Shown: positions 10,942 through 45,049 of the stretch, piece by piece
Layout: each line of letters begins with the position of its first letter
How positions within the stretch are numbered: position 1 is the first letter of the stretch
Translations under genes and position numbers: made by a program
NCBI GenBank assembly: GCA_965224705.1
Contig: OZ245056.1
Span: 800,001 to 864,000, forward strand
Source of the DNA: Spirochaetaceae bacterium
GTDB taxonomy: Bacteria > Spirochaetota > Spirochaetia > DSM-2461
Reading direction: 5' to 3'
Length of the DNA stretch: 64,000 nucleotides
The notes under the pieces: generated by a model
The model's input: the letters and a program-made list of their open reading frames with translations, nothing else
Databases searched by the model: none
What the model was told of the DNA's origin: nothing

Positions 10942-11103
10942 GAGTCTGTCGGACTTTAAGGCTTCGAGGCGATTTTTGATGATTTTTTCCTGATGCAAGG
11001 CGACAAAAACTTAAGCGTAGCTGGGCTACGTGAGTATTTTGGCAACGCAGCAGCAGGGAAAAAGGGCAAAAATCGAGCCGTGAGGCGTAAGTCCGACAGA
11101 CTC
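10942..11103 (+). repeat. ~162-bp structured TIR repeat (MITE-like), copy 1
   Basis: 15-bp TIR GAGTCTGTCGGACTT/AAGTCCGACAGACTC, flanked on both sides by CTAG. The right CTAG contains the stop of 11104-12096. Confidence 0.92.
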
Positions 11104-12096
11104 CTAGATCTCTTCCCATTCCCCGCTGCCTCCAGAGCGGAATGCAGCGTCAATGATCTTCATATTTGCAATACTGTCGGAACCGGGAATCGAAGCAGTA
11201 CCACCGTTCCGGAATGATTCAGTGAAGTCTTCAAGCATCAGCCTGTACTGATCTGCCGGACCACAGTGCACCTCCCTCTGACTACTGCCATCATCGATAG
11301 CAAGAAGAAGCGGAACGTCGGGGTGAGCATTAAATGGCCGTATAACCTCCAGGGAACCCCTGCTTCCGAACACTGAAACCTTCTGACGAGGAGTCATTCT
11401 TGTAGAAACAGTAAATACAGTCTTTGAACTGCCAAAATCCATTATAGCCGAACAGAGGGTGTCAACATTGGTTACAGCATCGTACTTAATATCTGCGAGA
11501 ACCCGATCTGGTTCCTGGTTCAGGAGAAATCGTGCTGAAGAGATGGCATAACAGCCAATGTCATAAAGAGCGCCGCCGCCAAGATCCCTTTGATTACGAA
11601 TGTTCCGGGGATCATTGTTTGAAAAACTAAAAATTGTATGAATGGACATAATCTCACCGATTTCTCCCGCATTCAGTACTTCTCGAGCTTTTACCCACTG
11701 GGGGTGGAAGCGGTACATAAAGGCCTCCATGGCCAGAACACCTTTCTTTTCAGCGTATTCAAAAGCGTCAGCAGCTTCGACAGCATTCATCGTTATGGGT
11801 TTTTCGCAGAGTACAGCCTTTCCAGCATCAACACATCTCCTGATCCACTCAGCGTGGACACTGTTTGGGAGAGGAATGTATACGGCTTCCACATCCGGGT
11901 CATCAATAACTTCCTGATAGGAACCGTAAGCCCTCTTGAATCCCCATTTCTCAGCAGCTTTCTGAGCACGTACAAGCGTACGGGAACCAAGGGAGATGGG
12001 GTCTATCAGATATGAATCTGTAATTGATTTGTGCATGCGAAGACCATAATGGCCGGAAACTCCGAGGACACCAAGTTTTAAGGGCTGCATATTCAC
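11104..12096 (-). CDS. Gfo/Idh/MocA-family oxidoreductase
   Basis: YIPLPNSVH, VLCEKP, EAFMYRFHPQW and GGGALYDIGCY motifs. Confidence 0.9.
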   Translation of the reverse strand: MNMQPLKLGVLGVSGHYGLRMHKSITDSYLIDPISLGSRTLVRAQKAAEKWGFKRAYGSYQEVIDDPDVEAVYIPLPNSVHAEWIRRCVDAGKAVLCEKPITMNAVEAADAFEYAEKKGVLAMEAFMYRFHPQWVKAREVLNAGEIGEIMSIHTIFSFSNNDPRNIRNQRDLGGGALYDIGCYAISSARFLLNQEPDRVLADIKYDAVTNVDTLCSAIMDFGSSKTVFTVSTRMTPRQKVSVFGSRGSLEVIRPFNAHPDVPLLLAIDDGSSQREVHCGPADQYRLMLEDFTESFRNGGTASIPGSDSIANMKIIDAAFRSGGSGEWEEI

Positions 12097-12247
12097 TCCT
12101 TCCGGGAATCAGTCGTTCTCAATTCCCGATCAACGTTGATTGTAGCAGAGAAATAGAATCATAGATATGAACTTTGTGAAAGTCTTCTGGACAGGTTTTT
12201 CTGCATGAAGTCATGCATTCCTGCTGAATTGAAGCTGCTCTCACCCT

Positions 12248-12580
12248 TCAGTTATCCAGATTAATTCCGGCAAGTTCGGCCAGCATATTGACCGCTTCAT
12301 CTTTCATCTTCACTTTTGTTTTCTTGACAGCCTTGCGTATGACAGGGCCCCATTGCTTCTGTGGAATATCTTCTTTCAACTCTTCAAGAAGTACCAGAAT
12401 ATTCTCACTCATATTTATGTTGTAGATCTTTTCAGCATCATAAAAGAAGGCTTCATCAAGAAGGTTGATGAAGTCGCCTGCCGTTCGAGAATCCCGTTGA
12501 CTTTTACGTTCGAGAACCATCATCTTTTTTCTGGACTTTTTTATCTCACGATTTCTTCGTTCCAAATCTGTGCTTTTCAT
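12248..12580 (-). CDS. Small charged hypothetical protein
   Basis: Open frame with a GGGAGA RBS before MKSTDL (12580) and an upstream TTGAAA-17-TATCCT promoter-like layout. Confidence 0.65.
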   Translation of the reverse strand: MKSTDLERRNREIKKSRKKMMVLERKSQRDSRTAGDFINLLDEAFFYDAEKIYNINMSENILVLLEELKEDIPQKQWGPVIRKAVKKTKVKMKDEAVNMLAELAGINLDN

Positions 12581-12676
12581 AGCGGTTTCTCCCAATCGTT
12601 AGTAGTAAGGATACTTGACCAGGCATTCTTTTTTCAATGGGACGTCAGTAGTTGGAAGAAGTTTTATCCCCATAAG

Positions 12677-13933
12677 AGTGTCAGAAAGCCTGTAAAACCT
12701 CCTTCAACCCATTCCGGGAGTCCAATCTCCTCCTAAACCTTCACATACAGCGGATCATAACGGCCGGATTCCACTCCCGGATTACGCCACTCACACAGCC
12801 AGGTTTTCTTCTCTGCCACACCCAGATTGACCTTGCTCAAAAAGGCCCTCTTCAACCAGTACCTGTTCACTGCCTTGCGAAGTTTCTTCCTGGTGATCCC
12901 GGCCTTCTCAGCATGAGTTGTGTCCTTCTTCTTCCGGGCCTCCTTCACCCGCCATGGAATCATGCAGTTGTGGTAGTGACGATAAAGAACAAATCGTATC
13001 ATCATCGCAGCGGGAGATTTGGCAAACTTGACCGTCTCCCTGACATGATCTGAAATATCTTTTCTGATCTGACGGTCAATGTAGTTAATAGGAAACATCG
13101 GGTTATCCATGGTTCTGGCCGACCTTGAAGATGTCATGACCCGGATGAAGAAGTGGAGAAAATGCTCGGTTTTCGCAAAGGCCCGGGTGTATGCCCTGTG
13201 CATATCCGTGAAGAGAAGCTTATGCACAACCTTTTTCTTCATAAGGAATTGAATCAAATCTTCTGTCAGACTTCTCACCGATTTCTCAATGGCCCCGGGA
13301 TCCGCCCTGCCCCGGGCCTCCAGCTTTTTTCGGATCAATTTCTGACGGGAAGTCATTCTTCCTTTCCTCCTGAGATTGGCAAACCCGGTCTCATAGATGA
13401 ACTCGGACTCACTTCCGGCAAAGATGTTGATGTGGTTGGGATAGTATTGAGAGAAGGAAAAGGACTCCAGTCCATCGGCGGCCATGGATTCCCTCATGGG
13501 GAGTTTTTTCAACAGCCGGGCATGGATTGCCATGGCGGAACGGGCCAATCTTTCGCATCGGTTCTGTACCGTATCGGAAGAAACCTCCAGATGACGGCTG
13601 ATGTCATTCACACCGGAAGAGGTCACCAGATGTTGGAAAAGTTCCTCGTAGTCGATGACTTTTTTCGCATAGTAATCGATTGAAAAAGTCTGGGAGGAAA
13701 AGGTTCTTTTGCAGTCATTGCAAATGTAGCGCTGGACTGTTCCAAATGCTTCTGTGTGGTAGGAACTATGTATCGAAAACCAGTTTTTTTGCTTCGGGGC
13801 ACTGAAATGGATACATTTCGGGTTGGGGCAGTGGGGGAATAACATGGTCAAACTCCTTTATAAATTGTTTTCTTACTATGTTATAACGAGCCTGACAGGA
13901 GTTTTTTGCTGCATTAACAAGCTTTCTGACACT
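12677..13933 (-). mobile_element. Insertion sequence, ~1.26 kb, with an IS1/IS1595-like transposase architecture; family uncertain
   Basis: Imperfect 20-bp TIRs (18/20): AGTGTCAGAAAGCCTGTAAA at 12677 and the reverse complement of 13914-13933, AGTGTCAGAAAGCTTGTTAA. They enclose one ORF; no clear TSD. Confidence 0.8.
12733..13851 (-). CDS. Putative transposase (Zn ribbon + HTH + RNase H-like catalytic domain)
   Basis: CPNPKC...QRYICNDC ribbon; HTH-like GVNDISRHLEVSSDTVQNR; acidic motifs AADGLES, FTDMHRAY and NYIDRQIR; late YRHYHN; AAGGAG RBS; lies between TIRs. Confidence 0.75.
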   Translation of the reverse strand: MTMLFPHCPNPKCIHFSAPKQKNWFSIHSSYHTEAFGTVQRYICNDCKRTFSSQTFSIDYYAKKVIDYEELFQHLVTSSGVNDISRHLEVSSDTVQNRCERLARSAMAIHARLLKKLPMRESMAADGLESFSFSQYYPNHINIFAGSESEFIYETGFANLRRKGRMTSRQKLIRKKLEARGRADPGAIEKSVRSLTEDLIQFLMKKKVVHKLLFTDMHRAYTRAFAKTEHFLHFFIRVMTSSRSARTMDNPMFPINYIDRQIRKDISDHVRETVKFAKSPAAMMIRFVLYRHYHNCMIPWRVKEARKKKDTTHAEKAGITRKKLRKAVNRYWLKRAFLSKVNLGVAEKKTWLCEWRNPGVESGRYDPLYVKV

Positions 13934-13977
13934 GGTTAAGGGATAGGAAGAAACATGACATTATGGCACGATGAGTC

Positions 13978-14787
13978 ATGGTTGCTTTTCGCCGCCCGGG
14001 AATTATGGGTATTATAAACTGCACTCCAGACTCTTTTTATGCAGGCAGCAGATCAATGGAGCATTCAGAGATTCTTAAAACTGCCAAAAAGATGATTGAG
14101 GAGGGCGTGGATATCATTGATATTGGTGGTGAATCTACAAGACCGGGTGCCGTCAGTGTTGATGCGGAGGAACAGATTTCCCGTGTAATACCATCAATTC
14201 ACTCAATTCGAGATTGTTCATCCGCAGAAATCTCCATTGATACTCAAAGCTCTGTTGTGGCTGAAGCGGCATTGAATGCCGGTGCGACTATAATCAATGA
14301 TATTTCAGCGTTGCGGTCTGATCCCGGGATGACTGAACTGGCAGCGGAACGGGGCGTGAAGGTCGTTCTCATGCACATGCAGGGTTCTCCTGCGACGATG
14401 CAGGATCATCCCTACTATGATGATGTTGTTCTGGAAGTCAGAGATTTTTTTCTCAAAGCTGTCGACTATGGGATGTCCAGGGGAATCAGGGAAGACTGCA
14501 TCATTCTCGATCCAGGTATTGGGTTTGGCAAGAGGTTTGAAGACAATATGACCTTACTCCGTAAACTCCCGGATATAAGGGTTGACGCATTTCCAATTCT
14601 GGTGGGATTGAGCAGGAAGTCCTTCCTTGGAACCATTCTTGGAAATGATGCCGACAGACTGGCCGGTACTCTGGCTGCTCATGGATGGTGCCTCGCTCAG
14701 GGGGTTGATTTCGTAAGGGTTCATGATGTGAAAGAAACCAGAGATCTCATCAATGTTTGGGAGGCACTGGCATGCAGTTCCTCATAG
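13978..14787 (+). CDS. folP: Dihydropteroate synthase
   Basis: IMGIINCTPDSF, DIGGESTRPG, LDPGIGFGK, SRKSF and RVHDV motifs. Confidence 0.95.
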   Translation: MVAFRRPGIMGIINCTPDSFYAGSRSMEHSEILKTAKKMIEEGVDIIDIGGESTRPGAVSVDAEEQISRVIPSIHSIRDCSSAEISIDTQSSVVAEAALNAGATIINDISALRSDPGMTELAAERGVKVVLMHMQGSPATMQDHPYYDDVVLEVRDFFLKAVDYGMSRGIREDCIILDPGIGFGKRFEDNMTLLRKLPDIRVDAFPILVGLSRKSFLGTILGNDADRLAGTLAAHGWCLAQGVDFVRVHDVKETRDLINVWEALACSSS

Positions 14788-15566
14788 ATCTCCCTTTTTT
14801 CAACAACTTCTTGTTGCCAGTACTGGATATTTTTCTTCTGGCCTACCTCCTTTACAGATTATACATATTACTGGAGGAAACGCGGGCAATTCAACTCCTG
14901 CGCGGTGCTGTCATCCTGGCTTTTATCTATGCCGTAGCCTGGGGGTTTCAATTGTCTGCCCTGCTGTGGATTCTTGAACTAATAGCTCCGGGACTTTTTA
15001 TCGGTGTTGCCATTGTTTTTCAGCCGGAATTACGCAACATTGTTTCCAGAATTGGTCAGAGGGAGTTATTCAAAGGAAAGGTACGGCAGAAGCCATTACA
15101 GATTGATGCGGTTCTCAATGCTGCTGAATTACTGGCTGATAGAAAACGAGGAGCTCTTGTTGTATTTGGAAGGAAGGTAGGATTAAAGGGAATCATCGAT
15201 ACCGGAACCCTGTTGAATGCCGATTTATCATCGTATTTGATTCTTACGGTCTTTGGTCATGATGGACCCTTACATGATGGAGCTATGATTATACAGGGAG
15301 GCCGTGTTACGGCAGCAAGTTGTTTTCTGCCATTATCAAATCAGTCCGATATAAGGAGTTCCTTTGGAACCCGTCATCGTGCCGCATTAGGAATGGCCGA
15401 AGAAACTGATGCCCTGATTCTGGTGGTATCCGAAGAAAGTGGTGCCCTGTCACTTGCTTATGATGGCAATATTTTCTACAACCTGGGAAGTGATGAAATC
15501 CGGCAGCGTTTGAATTCATTGCTGGGCATGAATTTGACGGATAGAGTGAAGGATGATAAGAAATGA
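14772..15566 (+). CDS. cdaA: Diadenylate cyclase
   Basis: Three N-terminal TM helices; IVFQPELR, LHDGA, GTRHRAALG and VSEESG motifs. Confidence 0.93.
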   Translation: MQFLIDLPFFNNFLLPVLDIFLLAYLLYRLYILLEETRAIQLLRGAVILAFIYAVAWGFQLSALLWILELIAPGLFIGVAIVFQPELRNIVSRIGQRELFKGKVRQKPLQIDAVLNAAELLADRKRGALVVFGRKVGLKGIIDTGTLLNADLSSYLILTVFGHDGPLHDGAMIIQGGRVTAASCFLPLSNQSDIRSSFGTRHRAALGMAEETDALILVVSEESGALSLAYDGNIFYNLGSDEIRQRLNSLLGMNLTDRVKDDKK

Positions 15567-16648
15567 GAATGTCAATTCTTCGCCGTTTTGTCCTTCATCG
15601 ATGGTCAAGCAAAATAATCTGTGCCGGATTGGCAATCCTTCTATATCTTCTGTTCCGTGTTAATACTCAAACCGAACGTGAAATCACCATTCCCCTTGAA
15701 GTGATAACACCCAGGGGATTGATTGTCAGTTCTGATTATCCGCGGAGCATCAATATCACTCTGAGGGGTAATGAGAACGATGTGAAAGGTGTCCTTCCAG
15801 ATGATATTGAGGCTTTCATCAATCTTCTCCCCTATTCGGAGGAAGGGGAGTATCAGCGCCTTATCGAAATTCGTAAGAAGGGAACAGCCCTCCAGCCAGA
15901 AGCATTGGAACTGCGTTCTCGGCCAAGGGAATTATCTCTTACCATTGAGAAGCAAGTCATGCGCTCACTGGTTGTTCGGCCAGAGTTGTCTGGTATCCCG
16001 GCTCTGGGCTACAGCCTGACTCAGTCTTTTATATCACCTTCATCTGTAACGGTTGTGGGACCTCAAAGTCAGATGGCCAATTTAACGGAACTCACCACCG
16101 AGATGATCGATCTTTCAGGCCGTCTTAAGAATTTCACTGTAACGACTCGTATAGTCAGCCCCTCTCCTCAAATTGAACTGCCCGGTGGTAGAATCGTTGA
16201 ATTTCGCGGAGTTATTGATGAAGTTGTAATAATTCGGACAATTGAGGACCAGGAATTGATTGTTTTCGACCTTCCTGATGGTCTGAGAATTACAGAAGAA
16301 CTCCCCCGCGTGCGCTTAACTCTGCAGGGAAACCAGTTGGCTGTGGAGGGAGTAAGACCTCAGGATATGACCTTTTTTCTTGATGGTTCCCGTATCAGCA
16401 GTCCCGGGTCATATACACTTCCTCTTGCGATGGATATTCCTCCCGGTCTGGCTGTTCTGACGCTTGTCCCCCGTGAGGTTGAAATTCAAGTGGTACAGAC
16501 CCGGCCGGATGTTTCTGAGGAAAATGTCCCGGCATTGACGACGCCTCAGAATACCAGGCAGATTTCAGATACTGCGCAGCCCTTTGGAACAGCAGGACTG
16601 CCGGATTATGCACCAGCAATTGATGCAGCAGAAGGGAATGATCAATGA
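15563..16648 (+). CDS. cdaR: YbbR-domain CdaA regulator
   Basis: N-terminal TM anchor, YbbR-like repeats (PSSVTVVGP), directly after cdaA. Confidence 0.85.
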   Translation: MRMSILRRFVLHRWSSKIICAGLAILLYLLFRVNTQTEREITIPLEVITPRGLIVSSDYPRSINITLRGNENDVKGVLPDDIEAFINLLPYSEEGEYQRLIEIRKKGTALQPEALELRSRPRELSLTIEKQVMRSLVVRPELSGIPALGYSLTQSFISPSSVTVVGPQSQMANLTELTTEMIDLSGRLKNFTVTTRIVSPSPQIELPGGRIVEFRGVIDEVVIIRTIEDQELIVFDLPDGLRITEELPRVRLTLQGNQLAVEGVRPQDMTFFLDGSRISSPGSYTLPLAMDIPPGLAVLTLVPREVEIQVVQTRPDVSEENVPALTTPQNTRQISDTAQPFGTAGLPDYAPAIDAAEGNDQ

Positions 16649-17031
16649 TCGTGGGAATTGGATTGGACGTTGTAACAGTTTCAAGGATTGCCGGATGGCT
16701 GGATGTGCCGCCGCTTTGTGAACGCTACTTTCATGAAGATGAATTGAAGGCTGTGTATTCCCGGGGAGCCGATGCACCGGCCTCTCTGGCAGCAAGATTT
16801 GCCGCAAAGGAGGCATTTGCAAAAGCCCTTGGAACAGGATTTACTGGATTGCGATTACGTGATATTCGTGTAGTGAATGAGCAGTTTAACCGCCCGATTC
16901 TCGTCCTGAAAGGCAGCGCACGGGCTGGAATTGAGCGGCTGGGCGTCGATAACGTGCATGTATCTCTAACTCATGAGGAGAATCTGGCTGCTGCACAAGT
17001 AATACTGGAGGCAGTTAATGGACAATACTAA
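16645..17031 (+). CDS. acpS: Holo-ACP synthase
   Basis: GIGLDVV, AARFAAKEAFAKALGTG and VSLTHE motifs. Confidence 0.95.
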   Translation: MIVGIGLDVVTVSRIAGWLDVPPLCERYFHEDELKAVYSRGADAPASLAARFAAKEAFAKALGTGFTGLRLRDIRVVNEQFNRPILVLKGSARAGIERLGVDNVHVSLTHEENLAAAQVILEAVNGQY

Positions 17032-17860
17032 AGTATCGTTCAGGAAAAAAAATCCAACAATTTGTCCTGTCTGTAAAACTGAGAACTATAAGGAAGAGCT
17101 TCTCACTGGCGGCGGTCGGATGAATGCTGGTGAGCTTACGGATGAACTACATCGGAAATATAACCCAACTAAGAAGTTTGGTGCAGTCTATCCGCTTTTA
17201 TACCCCATAACAGTATGTCCCCGGTGTTGGTTTGCCTCATTTCCACGGCATTTTGAAGCATTGAGTCCGGATATTGTAGAAGAACTGGACAGGGGTCTGA
17301 GTGCAAGAAAAAACCTTATACGGCCTTTGTTTGAAGATGTTGATTTCAGCCGGAACAGAACCTTGAAAGATGGCATCTCATCCTACGTGCTGGCAGCGGC
17401 CTGCTATGATTCTTTCCCTAAATCAATCTCACCTTCAATTCTTCAGGGACTCTGCTTTCTCCGGGCTGCCTGGCTGTCAGATGAACTGCATGAACTGGAG
17501 CCTGATGCAAAGTATGATTATCTGACCAGGATTTTCTACCGGAAGGCTGTGTTTTCATACGGCGAAGCATTGAGAAATCAAGATAATAAATCCGAAAACT
17601 GGGAAGAAATACCCCACCTTGGTCCTGATCTGGATAATAATTATGGTTATGATGGCGTCTACTACCTTGTTGGTGTGCTGCAGTTGAAATATGGAGACCA
17701 GACGGATAGTGACAAGCGGGCAAACTGTTTGAATCTTGCCAGAACAGCTGTTTCGCGTATCGTGGGAATAGGTGAGACATCGAAGGCTAAACCTTCAGCT
17801 TTTCTCGACCTTGGAAGAGAACTGCATAAATCAATAAAAGAAGAGTTGAAGCATCTGTAA
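17018..17860 (+). CDS. DUF2225-like protein
   Basis: CPVC...YPITVCPRC and LRAAWL motifs; spirochaetal position between acpS and truA. Confidence 0.75.
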   Translation: MDNTKVSFRKKNPTICPVCKTENYKEELLTGGGRMNAGELTDELHRKYNPTKKFGAVYPLLYPITVCPRCWFASFPRHFEALSPDIVEELDRGLSARKNLIRPLFEDVDFSRNRTLKDGISSYVLAAACYDSFPKSISPSILQGLCFLRAAWLSDELHELEPDAKYDYLTRIFYRKAVFSYGEALRNQDNKSENWEEIPHLGPDLDNNYGYDGVYYLVGVLQLKYGDQTDSDKRANCLNLARTAVSRIVGIGETSKAKPSAFLDLGRELHKSIKEELKHL

Positions 17861-18622
17861 ATGCTCCGCAACATCGCACTTGTTATCTCCTATGATGGTA
17901 CTCAGTATGCTGGATGGCAGATTCAAGAAGGTCAACCCAGCGTGCAGGGAACAATAGAAAAAGCTCTTGAAGATTTACATGGGTTTTCAATTTCACTGAC
18001 GGGGGCTGGAAGAACAGATGCCGGTGTTCATGCAACAGGTCAGATGGGGAACTTTCTTACGGAGAAAGATACAATCCCTGACTGGCAGTTTCGAGATGCA
18101 TTGAATTCCCGGCTTCCCCGTGATATCCAGATTTTGAGAAGTCAACGTGTGGACAGGTCTTTTCATCCAAGAAGAAATGCCCTGGCCCGAGTCTATGAAT
18201 ACAGAATGGCTGAAGGACGTGCCTTTCCCGCCCATCTTACACGCTTTACCTGGCTGCTTCCCCGTATCCCTTCCCTGGTTATTCTTAACAGTATGGCAAG
18301 TATTATCTGCGGCAGGCATGATTTCACCGCATTCGCAGCAGCAGGAGATTCTTCTCCCAATAAAAACCGGGAGATATATCATGCGGTGTTTCTGTCTGAT
18401 GGCCCCCAAACCCTGTTCCGTATCGGCGGCAATGCTTTTCTATGGAAAATGGTGCGTTCTTTGCTGGGAACTATGATAGATACAGCATTACGGGGTGGTG
18501 ATAAATGTACAATAAAGGGCATACTTGAATCTGGAGATAGAAATACGGCTGGACCCACAGCTCCGGCCAGAGGATTATTCCTTACCAGGGTGGAATATGG
18601 ACAGGAATGGGGCCTTCAATAG
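17861..18622 (+). CDS. truA: tRNA pseudouridine(38-40) synthase
   Basis: YDGTQYAGWQ, AGRTDAGVHA, FLWKMVR and TAPARGLFL motifs. Confidence 0.95.
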   Translation: MLRNIALVISYDGTQYAGWQIQEGQPSVQGTIEKALEDLHGFSISLTGAGRTDAGVHATGQMGNFLTEKDTIPDWQFRDALNSRLPRDIQILRSQRVDRSFHPRRNALARVYEYRMAEGRAFPAHLTRFTWLLPRIPSLVILNSMASIICGRHDFTAFAAAGDSSPNKNREIYHAVFLSDGPQTLFRIGGNAFLWKMVRSLLGTMIDTALRGGDKCTIKGILESGDRNTAGPTAPARGLFLTRVEYGQEWGLQ

Positions 18623-21303: not shown

Positions 21304-21361
21304 AAACGCCCCGGAGCTGTTCCCATGACAAAACATTTTAATTGTATTATATTCAGGATGT

Positions 21362-26227: not shown

Positions 26228-26238
26228 CGAACACCTCG

Positions 26239-26400
26239 GAGTCTGTCGGACTTTAAGGCTTCGAGGCGATTTTTGATGATTTTTCCTGATGCAAGGCAAC
26301 AAAAACTTAAGCGTAGCTGGGCTACGTGAGTATTTTGGCAACGCGGTAGCGGGGAAAAAAGGGCAAAAATCGAGCCGTGAGGCGTAAGTCCGACAGACTC
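26239..26400 (+). repeat. ~162-bp structured TIR repeat, copy 2
   Basis: Same TIRs and core as copy 1; flanked by a perfect 4-bp direct repeat CTCG (26235-26238, 26401-26404). Confidence 0.92.
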
Positions 26401-26546: not shown

Positions 26547-27449
26547 ATGAAATATATTAAAATAACAACTGTTCTTATGCTCATCTTATTGGGAATTTCC
26601 TGTAAGGGCAACATTTTTACAGGTAATCTGTTTAGTGCGTTGGATCCATATAAACCACCCTCGGAGAATGAACTGACGACAACCGAAGCAATCATGGATG
26701 AAGTAACGGATGGGCGTTTCCTGGATTATCTGGGTCAATCCCCGGAACTGGCTGAAAAAATCCTGGGAATACTGGAGGCTGAAAAGGATGACATTGTTGA
26801 CAAACTTAACGCTGGTGAAACTATCACCGATGACGAAAAACAATCACTCCTTGCTCTGTCACAGGTTGAATTTGCCGCCAGTGAAGCAGATGAATCACTG
26901 GCAAAAACGAATGATTTGATCGAGGACGTTGCTCAAGGTGAATCTGTATTGAGCTCAACAGCGGATCTATTAAAAAAGATTATAGTCATTGAAGATGGTC
27001 TGACAGAGAATGAGAAAAAAGAAAGTGTTAGAATGCAGATTGATGCTATGGTGAACAGTGCTGAGTATCTAAGGTTGTATCAGGATATTAATACAGACAA
27101 AGATGGAAACTACCTCCCGCCGGAAAGTACTGATTACCCTGAATCAGAAACAGCCTTTGATGCACTGTATTCGGGTGTTGTCTCATATATCACATCCAAT
27201 ATTATAGTAACTCAAGAAATAAAAGATGACTATCCTGGTACCACCGATGACGATGAGCTGCGTAAACTTGCCTTAACTGATGCCTTAGTTGCAGAAGTGA
27301 CCATTCCTAAGTATGAGAAACCAGCTGGTCTTGGTACAGATCCCGAAATGAAGGAACTGACTGAAGCCATTCTGGAGGAACAGGGAGTCGACAAAATAGT
27401 CGATCGTGGCCTGGGACTCGATACTGTTCTGGAAAAACTGGTTGGTTAA
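26547..27449 (+). CDS. Acidic lipoprotein of unknown function
   Basis: Lipoprotein signal MKYIKITTVLMLILLGISC; very Asp/Glu-rich body. Confidence 0.75.
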   Translation: MKYIKITTVLMLILLGISCKGNIFTGNLFSALDPYKPPSENELTTTEAIMDEVTDGRFLDYLGQSPELAEKILGILEAEKDDIVDKLNAGETITDDEKQSLLALSQVEFAASEADESLAKTNDLIEDVAQGESVLSSTADLLKKIIVIEDGLTENEKKESVRMQIDAMVNSAEYLRLYQDINTDKDGNYLPPESTDYPESETAFDALYSGVVSYITSNIIVTQEIKDDYPGTTDDDELRKLALTDALVAEVTIPKYEKPAGLGTDPEMKELTEAILEEQGVDKIVDRGLGLDTVLEKLVG

Positions 27450-27453
27450 TTCT

Positions 27454-28740
27454 GTGAAGAAAACGATACTGCCTTTATTTCTTTTAGTGCTCGGATTTAA
27501 TTCTTTAGATGCCGAACCGCGTTACAGGTTTGATCGGCCATTTGCCTGGACAAGTCCTGAAATTATGGCTCAGGGAGGTTCCTACACGGCAATTGCCAGT
27601 GGTTTTAACAGTCTGATGACAAACCCTGCTGGCTTTGCCTTCAACCACAATCGTAAAAAAATGAAGTCCAGGAGCCACACAAATCAGATTTATACAACGA
27701 TTCAGGGTGATACAATAGTTGTCCTTGAGGAAGAAGCAACTGAAAGAACTGTGTATCAGGAGAGGGGAGAAGTGACCATATTGGGACTTCAACCCATAAT
27801 AACTGCAAATCCCTTTACATTGCTGGGAGATCCGTCAGCTTTTTCGAATACTCAATCTATGATACCCGTGTTGTTTGATCAATTGAAGAACAATGGTCTG
27901 GGAGCCGCAGTGCAAGCCGGTGGAGGCTATGTCGGCCATGGTCTCGGCTTTGGTCTTATTGCTTATCTTGATGGAATGTTTCCTGGAACTCGTTATATTA
28001 CTTCCGTCAATGGCAGTATGACTCTAACCGTATCACTTGTTGGAGGATATGCACACAAGTTTCACTTTGGTCCTGTTGATCTGGCGATTGGAGCTGATGT
28101 TCGACCTATGTGGCGTCTTAAAATAAAAGACCTGGGGTTCAATACGGTACTGGACCAATTAGGTGGTGAAGGATTCTCACCGGAGGATCTTCTGGCCAAC
28201 AGTGATACATTGACAGGATGGGCAATTGGTTTTGATGCTGGAGTACTTGCCAAGTGGCGATTTCTTTCAATGGGATTCTCTTTGCGGGATATTGCCCATA
28301 CCCGATATCAATACAAAACCACCAACTTAATTACTGGCAGCTTAAACCCTTTTACGGGGAAAAATTACTCAGGTATACCATATATCTCACCAATGACTCT
28401 CAATATAGGTATTGGGGTGCAGCCTGATTTTGGCAGGTTGAACAAGTTTCTGGCATTCAAGGCTCATGCGGAGTTTAAAATCCCGTTGATTAACGCAGAT
28501 GAAGTCGCTGATTTTGTTGAGAAGAGTTTCTGGTCCATTCTACATCTTGGAACTGAAGTTAAGTTTTTTGACATTCTCTCTCTTCGCGGCGGCTTCTCTT
28601 CAGGGTATTTAACCGCAGGATTTGGACTTGATCTGTGGATCGTCGAATTGAATGCGGCAATTTACTCCCAGGAAGTTGGAAGACAGGCCGGAGATGATCA
28701 GCAGATGGGCGTCAATATGGAACTGGTTTTTCGCTTTTAG
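27454..28740 (+). CDS. Outer-membrane beta-barrel protein (TraF/FadL/PorV-like)
   Basis: Signal peptide, MAQGGSYTA...SLMTNPAGF hatch-like motif, amphipathic strands, C-terminal Phe (MELVFRF). Confidence 0.7.
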   Translation: MKKTILPLFLLVLGFNSLDAEPRYRFDRPFAWTSPEIMAQGGSYTAIASGFNSLMTNPAGFAFNHNRKKMKSRSHTNQIYTTIQGDTIVVLEEEATERTVYQERGEVTILGLQPIITANPFTLLGDPSAFSNTQSMIPVLFDQLKNNGLGAAVQAGGGYVGHGLGFGLIAYLDGMFPGTRYITSVNGSMTLTVSLVGGYAHKFHFGPVDLAIGADVRPMWRLKIKDLGFNTVLDQLGGEGFSPEDLLANSDTLTGWAIGFDAGVLAKWRFLSMGFSLRDIAHTRYQYKTTNLITGSLNPFTGKNYSGIPYISPMTLNIGIGVQPDFGRLNKFLAFKAHAEFKIPLINADEVADFVEKSFWSILHLGTEVKFFDILSLRGGFSSGYLTAGFGLDLWIVELNAAIYSQEVGRQAGDDQQMGVNMELVFRF

Positions 28741-28793
28741 GAGTCTGTCGGATTTACGCCTCACGGCTCGAAGCCTTAAAATCCGACAGACTC
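28741..28793 (-). repeat. 53-bp internally deleted copy of the structured repeat (copy 3); likely hairpin between convergent genes
   Basis: The two ends of the repeat are joined at a shared CTCGA; TIR GAGTCTGTCGGATTT/AAATCCGACAGACTC. Confidence 0.85.
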
Positions 28794-31695: not shown

Positions 31696-31802
31696 CAAGG
31701 CGGCAAAAGCGGAGCGTAGCTGGGCTACGTGAGTATTCTGGCAACGCGGTAGCGGGAAAAAAGGGCAAAAATCGAGCCGTGAGGTGTAAGTCCGACAGGC
31801 TC
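31696..31802 (+). repeat. 5'-truncated copy of the structured repeat (copy 4)
   Basis: Runs from CAAGGCG through the central hairpin to the right TIR variant AAGTCCGACAGGCTC; left arm absent. Confidence 0.85.
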
Positions 31803-32865: not shown

Positions 32866-32878
32866 AAAGGATTTTTGT

Positions 32879-35998: not shown

Positions 35999-36002
35999 CC
36001 AG

Positions 36003-36163
36003 GAGTCTGTCGGACTTTGAGACTTCGAGGCGATTTCTGATGATTTTTTTCCGATACAAGGCGGCAAAAGCGGAGCGTAGCTGGGCTACGTGAGCATTTT
36101 GACAACGCAGTAGCGGGAAAAAAGGGCAGAAATCGAGCCGTGAGGCGTAAGTCCGACAGGCTC
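36003..36163 (+). repeat. ~161-bp structured TIR repeat, copy 5
   Basis: Full-length copy between the convergent RND and hisS genes; flanks CCAG/CTAG; the right flank contains the hisS stop. Confidence 0.92.
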
Positions 36164-37489
36164 CTAGGGAGTCTGGCGTAGAAGCTCAATTGCTTTCCCG
36201 GCAGCATCCATCAAACTCAGTCCATTGAAACTCACCCTATTATGCAGATCCTTGAGGTTCATAGTGTTCCCTTCTGCTTCATCAGGGCCTGCAATTATGG
36301 CAAGGGGGATGCCTTTGGCTTCGGCATATTTGAACTGAGCGGTGATTTTCTTAGCTTCGGGATAAACTTCAGCAGAAAGACCGGCCGCTCTGAAATCTCG
36401 TGCATAGCTCTGATACCTGGCAAGAAGGGATTCATCCAGCATTAGAATCAGAACATCCGTAACAGAGGTGCGTTTTTTTAGTTTTCCCAATTCATCCATC
36501 CCGGCCATAAGCCTGTCCAGACCAATGGAAGCCCCAACTCCACCAAGAGGTTCTTTCATGAAGAGTCCTGTGAGATTGTTGTACCGACCACCAGAACAGA
36601 CCGAACCAAGGCCGGGTAATTCGTTGAGGAAGGTTTCAAATACGATGCCGGTGTAGTAATCAAGGCCCCGGGTGATGGATGGGTCCAGGGTAAGGATGTG
36701 CTGCATTTGAAGCTCATCCACTGCGTTTAATATGGTGAGCATTCTACTATGGTCCTGATCGTTTTCAGTACTGGATAAAGCAGCCATTTTCTCAAGAGTT
36801 TCCCGGTTGCTTCCTGTCGGTGTGATGAAGTCCAGAAGGATATCAATATCCCTGGAGTTCATGAGATCTGTCAGCAGAATTCTCACTTCATTCCGCCCGA
36901 TTTTTGCCATCTTGTCAACGATGCGGAGTATTTCAGTACATTCGTTCTTTAAGCCCAGTCTGACTAAAAGTTTATTGAACAGTCCCCTGTGGCTGAACCG
37001 GATATGGGCAGTTCCAGCACCTGCGGCATGAATTCCATCGGCCATCATCAACATAATTTCCAGGTCTGCTGATGGGCTGTCTGTTCCCACGATGTCGAAG
37101 TCGCATTGGATGAATTCCCTGTATCGGCCCCGTTGTGTGTTTTCTCCCCGCCAGACCTTACCTATGTGATAGCGCTTGAAGGGCATGACCAGATCGGATC
37201 TATGGCTGGCAACATAGCGGGCGAAGGGAACTGTCAAATCAAAACGGAGGGCGACATCCCTGCCTCCATGGTCCGTGAACCGATAAGTCTGTTTGTCTGT
37301 TTCGCCGCCGCTCTTGGAGAGCAAAATCTCAGTATATTCCAGTGCGGGAGTATCGATTGGAGTATAACCGAAGGAAGTGAAATGCTTCTGCAGGAGTCCT
37401 ATAAGCTCCTGCCTGGGGATCTCAGCATCAGGCAGAAAATCTCTAAATCCCTTGAGAACTCTGGGTTGTATTATATCAGACATTTTCAT
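36164..37489 (-). CDS. hisS: Histidyl-tRNA synthetase
   Basis: KGFRDFLP, LRFDLTVPFAR, GRYREFIQCDFD, RGLDYYTG and GGRYNNL motifs. Confidence 0.97.
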   Translation of the reverse strand: MKMSDIIQPRVLKGFRDFLPDAEIPRQELIGLLQKHFTSFGYTPIDTPALEYTEILLSKSGGETDKQTYRFTDHGGRDVALRFDLTVPFARYVASHRSDLVMPFKRYHIGKVWRGENTQRGRYREFIQCDFDIVGTDSPSADLEIMLMMADGIHAAGAGTAHIRFSHRGLFNKLLVRLGLKNECTEILRIVDKMAKIGRNEVRILLTDLMNSRDIDILLDFITPTGSNRETLEKMAALSSTENDQDHSRMLTILNAVDELQMQHILTLDPSITRGLDYYTGIVFETFLNELPGLGSVCSGGRYNNLTGLFMKEPLGGVGASIGLDRLMAGMDELGKLKKRTSVTDVLILMLDESLLARYQSYARDFRAAGLSAEVYPEAKKITAQFKYAEAKGIPLAIIAGPDEAEGNTMNLKDLHNRVSFNGLSLMDAAGKAIELLRQTP

Positions 37490-37506
37490 TCCATATTATG
37501 GATCGA

Positions 37507-40359: not shown

Positions 40360-40485
40360 ATAACCAGAAGTATATCATTCAAATCCGGTTTTGTCATTGA
40401 TTTTTTATTTCTCCTTCTCAGGAGATCATGTGTGAAGGATGACATTGCGAGTTTTCCGGCTGTTGAAATTGCTGTTTCACAGGGC

Positions 40486-40721
40486 AATCCTTATCTTTCT
40501 CAGGACAAACGACTGGAACTGTTGAATGCAACTGAAAATAAATTATGGGCCATCCAGAAAGCCGCAAGAAGGGAAAAAAGCTTTACGGAACAAAGTGAAA
40601 ATTGCCGAACGATATGGGCGAATTATTGAAAAGTATATAGTGGACAAACACTTCAAGTAGAGATTAGGGACGATGACTTTTTGTTTCCCGTAACGAAGAA
40701 TCCATCGGACAGGAAGAGGCA
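40486..40721 (+). pseudogene. Frameshifted fragment of an IS1634-family transposase
   Basis: Joining the frames gives NPYLSQDKRLELLNATENKLWAIQKAARR / LRNKVKIAERYGRIIEKYIVDKHF / VEIRDDDFLF / RNEESIGQEEA. This resembles the IS1634 segment that precedes the conserved DG.Y...T motif. Confidence 0.65.
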
Positions 40722-40927
40722 AAGTTCACCTGTCAGGAAGGCCTTGCGTTCACCTCATGGCAATCACAAAACAACCTGAAGAGCTAAAAATACAGTACAA
40801 TCCCATGTAAACAGTAAATAACATAGAATTTACTTGTAAATCTTTTTTTGATAGCGAATTACTAGCTTTTTTAGCTAAAAAATTCGGCTTAAAATGGGTG
40901 TTGTTCTTAGAATGAACAATTCAACAC

Positions 40928-40960
40928 TTGTATTTTTTTCCATGATATATTATCATATCA
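40928..40960 (+). promoter_or_regulatory. Putative promoter with overlapping palindromic operator for the BCCT gene
   Basis: TTGTAT-17-TATCAT; palindrome ATGATA-tat-TATCAT (40942-40956); GAGGAG RBS at 40980. Confidence 0.45.
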
Positions 40961-40991
40961 ATCAGCTTACAAATCAAACGAGGAGAAATGT

Positions 40992-42518
40992 ATGGACACA
41001 GGCAATGATACGCATGAATCTACAAATACCGATAAGTTGTCTTTGATTATCAGCGTCGGTTTTATGTTGTTATTTGTCATTTTTTATTTCATTAACAGTG
41101 AAGCATTAGGAAATGCAGTAAACACAGGTTTTGCGTGGTCGATTAAGTACTTCGGCGCATATTGGCAGGTGCTGCTTTTAGCAACATTTCTCATAGGCCT
41201 GGGGATCGCAATCAGCAGAAACGGAAGTTCAAAGCTGGGAGGATTAGAGAAGCCTGAGTTTATCACTCCTTCATGGATAGCGATTATAATGTGTACCTTG
41301 CTTGCGGGCGGAGGCGTTTTTTGGGCTGCTGCAGAACCCATTGCTCATTTTGTGAGTCCACCTCCAACATTTGCTGCGAGTGACAATCCATTTCAAATAG
41401 GAATCAATGCCCTCTCTCAGTCTTTTATGCATTGGGGTTTTTTGGCGTGGGCAATTTTAGGATCCCTTACGACGATAGTACTTTCCTATTTGCATTATGA
41501 CAAAGGCCTCCCATTGAAACCGAGAACATTGCTTTATCCACTCTTCAAAGAAAAAATTCACGGACCTATTGGTTCAGTCATCGATGCTTGTTGTCTCATT
41601 GCAGTTGCAGCAGGAACCATTGGACCCATTGGATTTTTAGGGCTTCAAGTGAGCTACATTTTGAATGACCTCTTCAATGTCCCAGATGCATTTATTACTC
41701 AACTCCTTGTCATCGCCGTTGCCACTTCCGTATATGTCACATCAGCTTTAACGGGTATCTATAAAGGCATACGAATTTTGAGTAAATACAATGTCAGCCT
41801 GGCAGTGCTCCTGATGCTCTATATTTTGATATTTGGGAGAACAGGATTTATCGTCGATGCTTATTTGCAAGGTGTCGGCAACCTTATTTCTAACTTTTTT
41901 GAAATGGCTGCCTTTCGGAGCGATACGGGTTGGCTTGGTTGGTGGACGGTATTTTTCTGGGGCTGGTTTCTGGGCTATGGTCCTGTCATGGCGATCTTCA
42001 TCGCTCGCATTTCACGAGGCAGAAGTATTCGTCAGATGATATTGACTATTAGCATCATCGCTCCTCTGGTAACGATGTTTTGGTTCACCATTGTTGGCGG
42101 AAGCGGCATTGCCCATGAAATTACAAGCGCAGGAGCGGTAAGCAAGGGGTTTGAAGGGTTCAATCTTCCGGGTGCCCTGTTGGCAATTACCAGTACCCTG
42201 CCATTGTCGACCTTGATATCGGTGTTGTTCCTGATTCTTACGATTACATTCATTGTCACAACAGGCGATTCTATTACATACACGATGAGCGTCATTAGCT
42301 CTTCATCGACGAAGCCTCCTCCAATGATGCGTGCCGTATGGGGTGTTGCAATGGGAATCGTAGCCATCATACTCATTTCAATTGGTTCAAGCGGTATTTC
42401 GGCATTGCAATCCTTCATTGTCATCACGGCAGTTCCAGTATCCTTGATATTGCTGCCGTCATTGTGGGATGCGCCGAAGATCGCAAAAAAGATGTCCGAA
42501 GAACAAGAAATAAAATAA
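40992..42518 (+). CDS. BCCT-family (betaine/carnitine/choline) transporter
   Basis: FWAAAEP, FMHWGFLAWA and WWTVFFWGWFLGYGPVMAIFIARISRGRSIRQ (BCCT signature). Confidence 0.93.
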   Translation: MDTGNDTHESTNTDKLSLIISVGFMLLFVIFYFINSEALGNAVNTGFAWSIKYFGAYWQVLLLATFLIGLGIAISRNGSSKLGGLEKPEFITPSWIAIIMCTLLAGGGVFWAAAEPIAHFVSPPPTFAASDNPFQIGINALSQSFMHWGFLAWAILGSLTTIVLSYLHYDKGLPLKPRTLLYPLFKEKIHGPIGSVIDACCLIAVAAGTIGPIGFLGLQVSYILNDLFNVPDAFITQLLVIAVATSVYVTSALTGIYKGIRILSKYNVSLAVLLMLYILIFGRTGFIVDAYLQGVGNLISNFFEMAAFRSDTGWLGWWTVFFWGWFLGYGPVMAIFIARISRGRSIRQMILTISIIAPLVTMFWFTIVGGSGIAHEITSAGAVSKGFEGFNLPGALLAITSTLPLSTLISVLFLILTITFIVTTGDSITYTMSVISSSSTKPPPMMRAVWGVAMGIVAIILISIGSSGISALQSFIVITAVPVSLILLPSLWDAPKIAKKMSEEQEIK

Positions 42519-42521
42519 ATT

Positions 42522-44888
42522 ATGAAGTCCCTATTACGCTCGCCAAATGATGTCATGAAAATCGAGCGCATAGGTGCAATGCACCAGAGCAGATTTAGTT
42601 TTGCAAGAATATTTATCAAAAACGCAAATAAGAATTCCTGGAAAATCTCTCTGGAAAAATGGGATTTAGACGAAAAGGGCTTCGGCAATGTTATATATTC
42701 TGTTAACACACCGAAGCGGCTTTATCATCTAGTCATATTTAGCAATGAACTTGAAGATAGTGAGCGTAATGACAGGGTTATCGCCGATAAATGGGATGTC
42801 GCCTGTGCGCTGGTGCAAGGAAAAGTTTCAGACGAACTATTAATTGACCTATGGCAGAATGTACCTTTACAAGAGAAAGGAAGATACAACGAAAAAGTAT
42901 TAACAATTAGCAGGGCAAATAAGAGCGTTCGCCTCTTTGATCATATCATAGAAGCCCTCTCATCGGGCAGACAGCCGAATATCGCCATGTTGGAAAAGGT
43001 GGGTTATATAATACGAACGACTGCTGTCTATGGAAATGGGAAGTTTGGAATGCTTGACTATGATGGACTTCAGGATAACGAAGATTTCAATATTCCATTT
43101 CTCACACAAATGTGTGTCGTATACATCTTGCGCTCATTTAGTATTGATTGGATTAACTTTTTGGCGAAGCAAAAAAATCCCGAAAAAGCCGTGAAGTTCA
43201 ATGATACCCTTTCAAGATTTTTGGGTGTCGGAAATGCCACAGGTCTTGGAATGACACTTTTCTTATTGAGACATCCAAAAATTGTTGATAATTGGTTGTA
43301 TCAAAGAGAATGCGCATTGAATGAAATCATGGCGGAAGTTCCATCGTCGAAGCATATCGCAAAGATGCTTACCCTACTCGATAGAGCAAGCAAGCATCTA
43401 AAAACTGTAGTGACAATAGATGAAAAGCAGAAAAAGCTAAATCGAATCGCATCGAAAGAAATTCAAGATGTTATTCAGCATATTCAAAGCATTGTGAAGG
43501 ACGACAATATATGGAAGAACATCATTCGCTCAAATAAAAAGTTGAGCTATGAGGCGCAAGAAACCTTTTTATCCTGTTTGCTTGAAATATATCCAGAAAT
43601 TGTGGAACCATACGAACGAAAGATGAACAGCGATGAAAACGAGCTTACTCTCGATAATGTAACGATCGCCGATTTATTGCACATCATCAAAGCAAAGTAC
43701 CAATGGGCAATTAATATTGATTTTGAGAAACCAGATGCGAATTTTTATTTCTGGTATATCTCCGAAGAGAAAGAAGAACCGAGGCTTGGTTTAAGAAACG
43801 AAGACGACGGTGCTGAAAAGGAGTTGCCTCTTGATGTGGCTCGGCAGGCACGCTATCTATATTCGGCTATCAAGGGTTTGGATCCTTGTATGCTGTTGAG
43901 CGAGTTTTTACTCATGCATCCTCAGTTTTCAAGTATTGCGAGACGCATTTATACTATGTCTGCCTGTCCGCTTGGGGAGATACAGACCAATATATTGGAT
44001 AAAAACTTCTTCCCGATGTATCTCCTCAGAGGAAAACTATCTTTTCTTGGAGCGACGAAGTTTGACCCACGATCTGACAAATGGGTGCAGGTTACTTTTT
44101 TTCAGAATGCTCCATTGATAGATGAATTGGATAAGGATGATTGGCTCTTTCCCCTCCTGGATAAAGAGGAGGTTACCACGCAGCCAATCAATAGAAAAAG
44201 AATATCCCTCAATGAGATTTACACAATATCATCGAAAGCCTTTTTGGCTTTGAAGAGTGAAGTTGGAGAGGCTGAAAATACTGCGAAGTGTTTAATGAAT
44301 ATGCATAAAATTGATTTTGACGGAATCTCTCTATTTGTTGAGGCATCAAAGAATCTGCCGAAGAGACTAAGATCAAGGCAGGTAGAGTTTCAAGAAGACA
44401 GGGTTGTTGTTGACTTGCAAAATCAAAGCCTCCTGTACTTCGCTCCGATGGTAATTGATTACGCTCTCAGTCAGGTGACTTTGAATAAGGAGTTCAAAAT
44501 CATTTTCAAGCACTGCACTCATGAATGGTCCATCATAGGTTTTTTAATGTCAATGTCTCTTGAAAATGTGCACACGATGACCAGGTGGAATGAAGGTAAT
44601 AAGTGTGTATGCGCTATTTTTTCCCCCGACAATCCATGGGCGAATATCACCACGTGTGCGCCCTCCAATTCAAATAATGAATTGACAATGCTGCTGAGTT
44701 CAAAGAGTTTATCGCATAAGAAAAGACATCACGCATTATACTCTTCAAGGGAGCTTCAAAATCGCGCGTTGCGCTCTATGAAAAAGGGAGTGATGGTTGA
44801 AGGTGATACACTGAAAGAATTTACCTCCCTTTATAAGGGTTTGCTCGTAGAAGCAACAATAGATTCAAGAAAGGGCGCAGGGGCATAA
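42522..44888 (+). CDS. 788-aa uncharacterised protein: conserved ~550-aa domain fused to a DUF3726-like C-terminal domain
   Basis: Conserved-looking motifs DRVIA, SRANKSVRLF, GYIIRTTAVYGNGKFG, GVGNATGLGM, EEPRLG and KFDPRSDKW. The C-terminal part runs ISLNEI...KAF...GEAE to EATIDSRKGAGA. Confidence 0.75.
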   Translation: MKSLLRSPNDVMKIERIGAMHQSRFSFARIFIKNANKNSWKISLEKWDLDEKGFGNVIYSVNTPKRLYHLVIFSNELEDSERNDRVIADKWDVACALVQGKVSDELLIDLWQNVPLQEKGRYNEKVLTISRANKSVRLFDHIIEALSSGRQPNIAMLEKVGYIIRTTAVYGNGKFGMLDYDGLQDNEDFNIPFLTQMCVVYILRSFSIDWINFLAKQKNPEKAVKFNDTLSRFLGVGNATGLGMTLFLLRHPKIVDNWLYQRECALNEIMAEVPSSKHIAKMLTLLDRASKHLKTVVTIDEKQKKLNRIASKEIQDVIQHIQSIVKDDNIWKNIIRSNKKLSYEAQETFLSCLLEIYPEIVEPYERKMNSDENELTLDNVTIADLLHIIKAKYQWAINIDFEKPDANFYFWYISEEKEEPRLGLRNEDDGAEKELPLDVARQARYLYSAIKGLDPCMLLSEFLLMHPQFSSIARRIYTMSACPLGEIQTNILDKNFFPMYLLRGKLSFLGATKFDPRSDKWVQVTFFQNAPLIDELDKDDWLFPLLDKEEVTTQPINRKRISLNEIYTISSKAFLALKSEVGEAENTAKCLMNMHKIDFDGISLFVEASKNLPKRLRSRQVEFQEDRVVVDLQNQSLLYFAPMVIDYALSQVTLNKEFKIIFKHCTHEWSIIGFLMSMSLENVHTMTRWNEGNKCVCAIFSPDNPWANITTCAPSNSNNELTMLLSSKSLSHKKRHHALYSSRELQNRALRSMKKGVMVEGDTLKEFTSLYKGLLVEATIDSRKGAGA

Positions 44889-45049
44889 GAGTCTGTCGGA
44901 CTTACGCCTCACGGCTCGATTTTTGCCCTTTTTTCCCGCTACCGCGTTGCCAAAATGCTCACGTAGCCCAGCTACGCTCCGCTTTTGCCGCCTTGTATCG
45001 GAAAAAAATCATCAAAAATCGCCTCGAAGCCTTAAAGTCCGACAGACTC
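44889..45049 (-). repeat. ~161-bp structured TIR repeat, copy 6 (reverse orientation)
   Basis: Full-length reverse-complement copy starting immediately after the TAA at 44886-44888; flanks ATAA/ATAG. Confidence 0.92.

Follow-up and report, generated by a model that had tools for sequence, protein, structure and literature searches.

The interior of a bacterial MITE is usually regarded as lineage-specific debris. Type II MITEs are short, non-coding elements that share their terminal inverted repeats (TIRs) with an autonomous insertion sequence (IS) and are mobilised in trans (PMC10969869, in part). MITEPsy1 of Pseudomonas syringae has a 4-bp duplication, CTAG or YTAA, and folds into a long stem-loop (PMC3189936, in part). 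The window analysed here, a stretch of 64,000 nucleotides, contains six copies of a repeat that is almost certainly a gene-less type II MITE with IS1182-type ends, carrying a portable core of ~80-100 nt, and not something other than a MITE, as the initial annotation had it. Like the type II MITEs, it is short and non-coding and has its TIRs in common with an IS, and it shares with MITEPsy1 the CTAG-like duplication and the long fold. It differs from MITEPsy1 in its TIR and its IS family, and from all of these in that a module common to unrelated shells, and not IS debris, makes up its interior.

Copy 1 (10942..11103, plus strand) is a full-length, 162-bp element whose better-folding strand, called here the motif strand, is the plus strand. 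Its 15-bp TIRs (10942..10956, plus; 11089..11103, minus) are flanked by CTAG duplications at 10938..10941 and 11104..11107. The conserved core (10984..11063, plus) scores 43.2 bits with a model that excludes the copies of this genome, and consists of an outer helix, an AAGGC/AACGC internal loop, an A/U helix, a GGA/GA loop and an apical hairpin. Copy 1 is predicted to fold into a single rod (-80.6 kcal/mol, z -9.8; complement -62.5, z -8.2). An oxidoreductase ORF on the minus strand (11104-12096) has its stop codon in the right CTAG, and the motif strand is therefore antisense to this ORF. No sigma-70 promoter-like site was found around the copy.

The count of six ~162-bp copies holds for copies 1, 2, 5 and 6, which are full length, but not for copies 3 and 4. 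Copy 2 (26239..26400, plus) has an exact CTCG duplication and a core at 26280-26359 (34.7 bits). Copy 3 (28741..28793, minus) is a 53-bp core-less form adjoining the stop codon of a plus-strand ORF (27406-28740), to which it is antisense. A contig of one RNA run (X7) skips this copy, a weak hint of an empty allele. Copy 4 (31696..31802, plus) is truncated at its 5′ end: without the left TIR and left arm, it comprises only the core (32.6 bits) and the right end. Copy 5 (36003..36163, plus; core 36045-36123, 60 bits) lies between convergent AcrB-family and hisS genes with flanks CCAG and CTAG, the right one containing the hisS stop. Copy 6 (44889..45049, minus; core 44929-45007, 56.7 bits) adjoins the stop codon of a plus-strand ORF (42522-44888) and is antisense to it. 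The annotated 15-bp TIR and nested helices are correct letter for letter. So are the differences listed between copies: CGATTTCTG/CAGAAATCG in copy 5; CTGATGC/GCAGCAG as opposed to CCGATAC/GTAGCGG, with a mixture of the two in copy 2; AC/GT as opposed to GC/GC, where copy 4 has G-T; and the TIR variant GACAGGCTC.

Across this genome (G000), 154 TIR-bounded copies are dispersed and lack coding capacity. The 15-bp TIR also bounds an IS1182 element in the genome (G000:C1:1526965-1528569), which has CTAG on both sides and encloses a transposase matching NF033551 (324 bits; NCBIfam cut-off 270). The IS1182 elements of two relatives have near-identical TIRs and also CTAG. A 4-bp CTAG-like duplication, overlooked in the initial annotation, is exact in 63 of 130 elements and has one mismatch in 39 more (8.3% between copies); in the same set, exact duplications of 3, 5 and 6 bp number 0, 1 and 0. 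It is also exact in 6 of 16 core-less 53-bp copies. One site is occupied in a sister genome (G009) and empty, with a single CTAG, in this one. In three sister genomes, the hisS site is either filled or decayed, and in none is it empty. The genome's IS1182 transposase is the likely mover of the MITE in trans. Among 150 other genomes of the class, 2 contain an IS1182 relative; a metagenome scan gave no further relatives, and no plasmid match to copy 5 was found. The core matches the genome's IS1182 with just 12 bits (E 0.87), at the IS 3′ end. We rejected a derivation of the core from this end given that E value; by inspection, the core is absent from two related IS1182 ends.

As evidence of covariation, the six copies in the window are weak, since they represent essentially one subfamily split plus mosaics. 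Copy 1 and copies 5 and 6 belong to two haplotype subfamilies, and non-pairing control columns (54-62, 54-68, 48-54) are linked as tightly as the pairs, so that the differences between these copies count as about one event. Copy 2, which had been read as a G-U intermediate, takes its left arm from one subfamily and its right arm from the other. It is better read as a mosaic, because 147 of 231 common-site pairs among the genome copies are four-gamete positive. For structure analysis of the genome copies, we excluded three with swapped interiors, along with six homopolymer columns. RNAalifold returned a gappy structure for 93 copies, and the consensus MFE was used in its place. Of the variants found in at least 5 copies, 11 of 14 preserve pairing, compared with 16 of 55 rare ones (p 0.0014). 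The claim that wobbles fit only one strand found no support within the genome, where the skew is not significant (G-U:A-C of 13:21 for rare and 6:2 for common variants; Fisher p 0.11), but did find support across phyla, as described below. A proposed GCC-GTGA-GGC hairpin is absent from the MFE rod and falls outside the conserved core; a GCCGTGAGAC-type change breaks it in 21 of 96 copies.

The core is far more widespread than the element. We estimate ~6,500 GTDB stretches with it, in six or more phyla and with many TIR types; the core pattern also occurs in 4 viral stretches. Of 127 core matches in this genome, 108 are in the IS1182-type shell, two are in a third shell and others are in a GGGCACCTCTAAAAA shell, which also carries the core in three sister genomes. 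Thus, the whole 162-bp rod is not the conserved unit, as had been supposed: only the inner core is conserved, and the shell is exchangeable. The interior of the element is under selection for its fold on one strand, and this part of the initial annotation was borne out by the cross-phylum alignment. There, 11 pairs covary beyond a tree-based null, 92.9% of alignment cells are paired (0 of 500 shuffles), and wobbles on the motif strand are G-U in 70 cases and A-C in 27 (42 and 32 in a swapped-partner control). Because the core keeps both its sequence and its one-strand fold in at least six phyla while the ends are swapped, something reads it. We found no recurring partner gene beside the core; 130 flanking ORF fragments included one IS110 transposase and one integrase.

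We propose that the core is a folded single-stranded DNA signal that would favour the element's own copying or survival, a role to which we give slightly less than an even chance. Selection would then act on the element rather than on host genes, and the folded strand would be DNA that replication or transposition leaves exposed. The invariant loops, AAGGC/AACGC and GGA/GA, might be read by a widely conserved protein, of the host or of a mobile element, with the helix sequence left free. There are some hints at the DNA level. In the complete Pokkaliibacter chromosome (G277), the motif strand is the lagging-strand sequence in 53 of 65 copies (p 3e-7); the IS5 and IS1182 families show little replication-strand bias (PMC3971601, in part). 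Mostly, the mRNA corresponds to the complement of the motif strand. Moreover, of the seven 3′ junctions in this genome of a group II intron with a 421-aa reverse transcriptase, three lie at one core position, on the motif strand. Against the proposal, Marinilabilia (G278) has no replication bias (27 leading, 19 lagging, p 0.30), duplication occurs without the core, and copies at stop codons are biased to antisense. Also, the intron junction is found in this genome only (none in 4 sister genomes, in viral stretches or in 401 genomes from another order), which led us to reject general intron targeting of the core. Copies in this genome are split 62 to 52 by replication strand, with a genome skew too weak to assign replichores.

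A tentative alternative, to which we attach a rather low probability, is that the core works as RNA. The transcribed motif strand would form a rod that is recognised by a conserved RNase or RNA-binding protein and that harms or alters host mRNA, so that copies right after stop codons would survive mainly in antisense, comparable to the orientation effects of ERIC in Yersinia. The motif strand in this genome is antisense to codirectional genes in 50 cases and sense in 26; the ratio is 17 to 2 for copies with a stop codon in the target site, 12 to 1 at symmetric CTAG and, across phyla, 23 to 6. That the bias within the genome is strongest at stop codons points to an effect at the RNA level. Core-less 53-bp copies also lean antisense (8 versus 2, p 0.11). 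The energy gap between strands is 15 kcal/mol as RNA and 7 with DNA parameters. G-U or G-T wobbles and tandem G-A pairs, on the other hand, are stable in RNA and DNA alike and so do not choose between the two. For ERIC, orientation is crucial to RNase E effects (reviews PMC2229807 and PMC3184786, in part), and in PMC2759123, where ERIC is fused to the 3′ ends of genes, the fused strand is complementary to the motif strand. However, transcription bias is absent in Pokkaliibacter (20 sense, 16 antisense) and Marinilabilia (20 sense, 12 antisense), and purging from mRNAs alone would leave the conservation of structure unexplained. Nor could a discrete RNA be demonstrated: the stretch is present in four RNA runs of one study as contigs, with depth summed over all copies, and these do not reveal the strand, the start or end, or a circular joint. 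With such uninformative contigs and a favoured strand mostly antisense to neighbouring genes, an RNA role in host mRNA was not upheld.

Two further readings dispense with a folded strand. In one, which is unlikely and already weakened, nothing selects for the fold: template switching or gene conversion would maintain the palindrome, and the core would be inert filler spread by horizontal transfer and shell recombination. Such rewriting is visible in the copy at 1746383 of this genome, in which the internal loop of the right arm has come to complement the left arm perfectly. The TIR shows double changes as well (pair 13/149, 12 observed versus 2.1 expected), mosaicism among the genome copies is strong, and rare variants lack a G-U bias. 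Yet template switching yields Watson-Crick pairs and not the cross-phylum G-U excess on one strand. It would also erase the unpaired AAGGC/AACGC loop; of 80 elements, 69 and 68 match its two sides exactly, outside the searched pattern. In the other reading, which we regard as improbable, the core is a double-stranded binding site, either a palindromic operator or one for an architectural protein, and helps the two ends to synapse. Invariant, quasi-palindromic letters do flank a variable spacer. But ten base pairs of free sequence stay complementary, families differ in helix length by some nine pairs, and the bias among wobbles is strand-specific, none of which follows from duplex recognition.

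The core, which the initial annotation could not assign to a named RNA family, corresponds to no Rfam entry: no family of Rfam 15, self-cleaving ribozymes included, reached the gathering threshold in the window, a 286-bp form of the element, six loci of other genomes, an ERIC locus or E. coli repeat copies. Our literature search, conducted without subscription papers, ISfinder and supplementary motif lists, returned no paper describing the shared core. The standard kink-turn consensus has a three-nucleotide bulge before tandem G-A pairs; the core has the tandem GA, but one extra base (two in a variant), and was rejected as a standard kink-turn. REP/REPIN elements have an invariant GTAG tag and a RAYT partner. 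The GTAG in the apical stem of this genome's copies is not conserved across phyla.

YPAL/RU-2 of Yersinia is a palindromic intergenic repeat found near stop codons, as is the element here, and its GCGCC-loop-GGCGC hairpin resembles the extra module of the 286-bp form (PMC2759123 Table 1b and PMC2229807, in part). By these sources, it has a variable-length duplication and no TIR, and its printed sequence in Table 1b is without the core, so we rejected it as a core carrier. In E. coli ATCC 8739, the only hits of core model R2 are four copies of a ~150-bp repeat (E 1e-6 to 2e-4), which may be RSA/BEE95. That name occurs only in a reference title (PMC3751351, in part). This repeat is present in all 5426 of 5426 E. 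coli genomes, at a median of 5 places per genome. Its ATCC 8739 copies have the A/U helix, GGAG, apical hairpin and UGAG like the core, but different ends, and the AAGGC/AACGC loop is not kept.

ERIC (IRU, RU-1; consensus in PMC2759123 Table 1a) is likewise a rod-shaped MITE. Its better-folding strand has AAGGCGACAA, GGAG-hairpin-UGA and AACGCAG in the same order as the core. It has other ends, lacks the A/U helix and duplicates TA, in contrast to the 4-bp CTAG-like duplication here; having neither ERIC ends nor the TA duplication, the present element is not an ERIC/IRU. Judged by sequence, kinship between ERIC and the core is only suggestive, because ERIC scores 13.6-16.5 bits with the core model (13.9 bits with E 0.26 against 74 kb, and 16.5 bits with E 0.0025 against a hand-picked 4.4 kb) and is absent from the model's hits in the E. 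coli genome. It is possible, if doubtful, that the core is an ancient, transposase-independent module of structured nucleic acid that is read by a host factor conserved across bacteria and boosts the spread of the unrelated MITEs that captured it, with the RSA-like repeat of E. coli and ERIC as diverged descendants. A defined motif that is supported by covariation and present in laboratory E. coli offers a handle on the role and multiplication of ERIC-like repeats. If the core is indeed such an ancient module, one motif would explain several long-known repeat families of unknown function.

The repeat is a MITE, a vehicle of an already known kind. In the window's genome (G000, a single 3.0-Mb contig), its 15-bp TIRs bound 154 elements of up to 300 bp, which fall into three main size classes (157-163 bp, 96 elements; 284-288 bp, 18; 53 bp, 16) and a remainder of odd sizes. 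The four flanking bases are the same left and right in 63 of the 130 copies in these classes (versus 8.3% between different copies); a flanking repeat of 5 bases occurs once, and one of 3 or 6 bases never. Targets follow the consensus C(T/C/A)AG. G000 also has a 1,605-bp element that shares this TIR, lies between two CTAG copies and carries the gene for an IS1182 transposase, which would mobilise the MITE in trans. For one of five loci tried, an empty G000 site with a single CTAG is filled in the sister genome G009. The 162-bp query matched 9/13 genomes of the genus, 0/23 of the family's other genera and 2/24 of other families. Exact duplications flank 6 of the 16 core-less, 53-bp copies; the core, a folded interior of roughly 80-100 nt, is no strict requirement for having the duplication. 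Elements with the core nevertheless outnumber those without it about sevenfold.

Half of the G000 duplications are imperfect, and their mismatches follow a pattern (CCAG/CTAG 10, CTAG/CTGG 5, CCAG/CTGG 4; the junction reads CCAGG), for example at window positions 35999-36002 and 36164-36167, or in locus L019 versus G000:647248. Biased T-G repair acts at CCWGG sites, and either such repair or recombination between copies could explain this pattern. Decayed IS1182 pieces lie at G000:C1:2205955-2207981, 874000 and 2963400-2971400.

The initial annotation described six copies of about 162 bp, whose covarying rod it read as a structured RNA or ssDNA element. All the letter differences that it listed between copies are present in the window, and no Rfam family matched anywhere in the window. 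Four copies are full length (10942, 26239, 36003 and 44889); the copy at 28741 is 53 bp long and has no interior, while that at 31696 lacks its left end. The first is predicted to fold into a single rod (-80.6 kcal/mol, z -9.8), and its complement more weakly (-62.5 kcal/mol, z -8.2).

The covariation seen inside the window is weak evidence for this fold. Among 93 G000 copies (three with a swapped interior were dropped), the compensatory pairs 50/113, 54/109 and 68/93 split the copies into two subfamilies, linkage between non-pairing columns is equally tight, and mosaicism is evident from all four gametes at 147 of 231 common-site pairs. Distinct variants give G-U:A-C ratios of 13:21 when rare and 6:2 when common (p 0.11). 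Within-genome covariation is thus weak evidence, and its single surviving signal is that common variants keep pairs: pairing is kept by 11/14 variants found in at least five copies versus 16/55 rare ones (p 0.0014). One arm of one copy was rewritten as the other arm's perfect complement, as template switching would do.

The core sits in exchangeable shells. Of 127 apical-motif matches in G000, 108 lie in the IS1182-type shell, and the others in a second shell with GGGCACCTCTAAAAA ends and in fragments. The second shell has the same core and a 4-bp AT-rich duplication (G000:C1:1750300-1750490, 526745-526908, 964130-964292 and others); no transposase was seen between such ends in G000. Three sister genomes also carry it, and a Spirochaeta MAG (L156) has both this shell and the core in common with G000, which suggests that G000 comes from a spirochaete. 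A third G000 shell holds two further cores with a longer helix.

An exact degenerate core pattern, searched in 2/64 parts of GTDB, gave 124 loci, for an estimated total of ~6,500 in the whole. By name, they belong to Gamma-, Beta-, Alpha- and Zetaproteobacteria, Bacteroidota, deltaproteobacteria, Clostridia, Spirochaeta and Acidobacteriota, and they bear many differing terminal repeats. Five named genomes have 2 to 65 copies each, and a reversed control pattern has none in the same five. Within the window's phylum the core is patchy (6/100 other genomes). Some genomes carry core-bearing units in head-to-tail tandem arrays (loci L060 401-710, L061 379-741 and L086).

The alignment of these cores shows a structural constraint on one strand. 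Sufficient flank was available for 116 of the 125 matches, and dropping those more than 75% alike left 80. Beyond the letters of the search pattern itself, AGGC lies upstream in 69/80 and AAC(G/A) downstream in 68/80. For covariation we used the 27 elements of commonest spacing, aligned by offset only, with a tree-based null of 60 replicates rather than R-scape. E was ≤0.05 in 11 of 3,916 column pairs, all on hairpin diagonals and nine outside the pattern. Cells are paired in 92.9% of cases versus 72.1% when shuffled (reached by 0/500 shuffles) and 32-42% when slid, and RNAalifold, unaided, recovers the same core structure. When the arms are aligned in a strand-neutral way, 70 isolated mismatches are G-U and 27 are A-C (p 1.5e-5; 37 versus 14 elements), although part of this skew is composition because partners swapped between elements give 42:32. 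With a model built from the 27 elements, five window copies score 33-60 bits and the 53-bp copy is not found; about nine pairs of the middle helix are absent from the window family. Selection on one folded strand, as the annotation had proposed, is supported by cross-phylum covariation and the G-U skew, and not by the window's own six copies.

The better-folding (motif) strand is antisense in 50/76 codirectional contexts in G000 (p 0.008), in 17/19 G000 copies with a stop codon inside the target, and in 4/6 window copies, at a target holding a stop codon. A cross-phylum set of 64 de-duplicated loci with sufficient flank has it antisense in 23 and sense in 6, and the other 35 give no information. 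For Pokkaliibacter (G277), GC skew places the origin and terminus; there the motif strand is the lagging-strand sequence in 53/65 copies (p 3e-7), with no transcription bias (20:16). Marinilabilia (G278) has neither a replication (27:19) nor a transcription bias (20:12). The orientation pattern thus depends on host or shell. In G000 the GC skew is too weak to give the replication direction of the copies; it is also irregular, perhaps from rearrangement via the ~150 repeats.

Since host mRNAs mostly lack the motif strand, whose orientation clearly tracks replication in one genome, we rank first, tentatively, that the core works as a folded ssDNA signal. That it works as RNA seems rather less likely; we rank this second because stop codons are where the antisense bias of G000 is strongest. 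Mechanical maintenance of the palindrome and a duplex site are both improbable, given their poor fit to the G-U skew and the kept loops. Under the preferred ssDNA reading, a conserved factor would recognise the folded strand, and selection may act at the level of the element.

A group II intron of G000 (three full copies of ~2,035 nt, 421-aa RT) also enters the core. Its 3' ends lie at G000:C1:1534287, 1943455 and 2472355 (loci L227-L229), 1652440 (L184), 331775, 1071337 and ~1242863. Three of these seven junctions are at an identical core base, across three host subtypes (P 3e-5 to 4e-3, depending on the assumed target motif), and one intron-core junction is flanked by both core halves. The intron inserts at CG(A/G)A|G, each time at a structured repeat: three insertions are in the core, one is in the extra module of the 286-bp form, two precede attC-like ends and one is in another hairpin repeat. 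No such junction in the core was found outside G000, in a search of four sister genomes, 401 genomes of another order and viral stretches. Judging by its length, the intron would lack an endonuclease domain; PMC7923331 states that such introns need replication for insertion.

The 284-288-bp form (18 G000 copies, such as L185) has a 125-bp extra module with three hairpins and no Rfam match. One hairpin, whose CA-CGGA-TG loop matches the CsrA site consensus, is similar to a hairpin of YPAL/RU-2 as printed. The window also holds a small inverted-repeat family with AGTGTCAGAAAGC ends (9781-9904, 12665-12696 and 13914-13945), probably another MITE, and two oppositely oriented copies of a 34-base, GACTCCAGTCCATC-like repeat (13461-13494 and 63124-63157).

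We found no literature description of the shared core; the supplements of PMC2229807, PMC3189936 and PMC2267715 may print sequences of core-bearing families. With a broader core model (107 matches), E. coli ATCC 8739 has four hits (E 1e-6 to 2e-4), each of them a copy of one ~150-bp intergenic repeat found in 5,426/5,426 genomes at a median of 5 places each. We take this repeat to be RSA/BEE95. That name occurs in a reference title in PMC3751351. Rfam has nothing for this repeat or for ERIC, which gave no genome-wide hit for the core model in E. coli. Located by its primer and compared with the consensus given in PMC2759123, ERIC has its motif order in common with the core, but scores just 13.6-16.5 bits.
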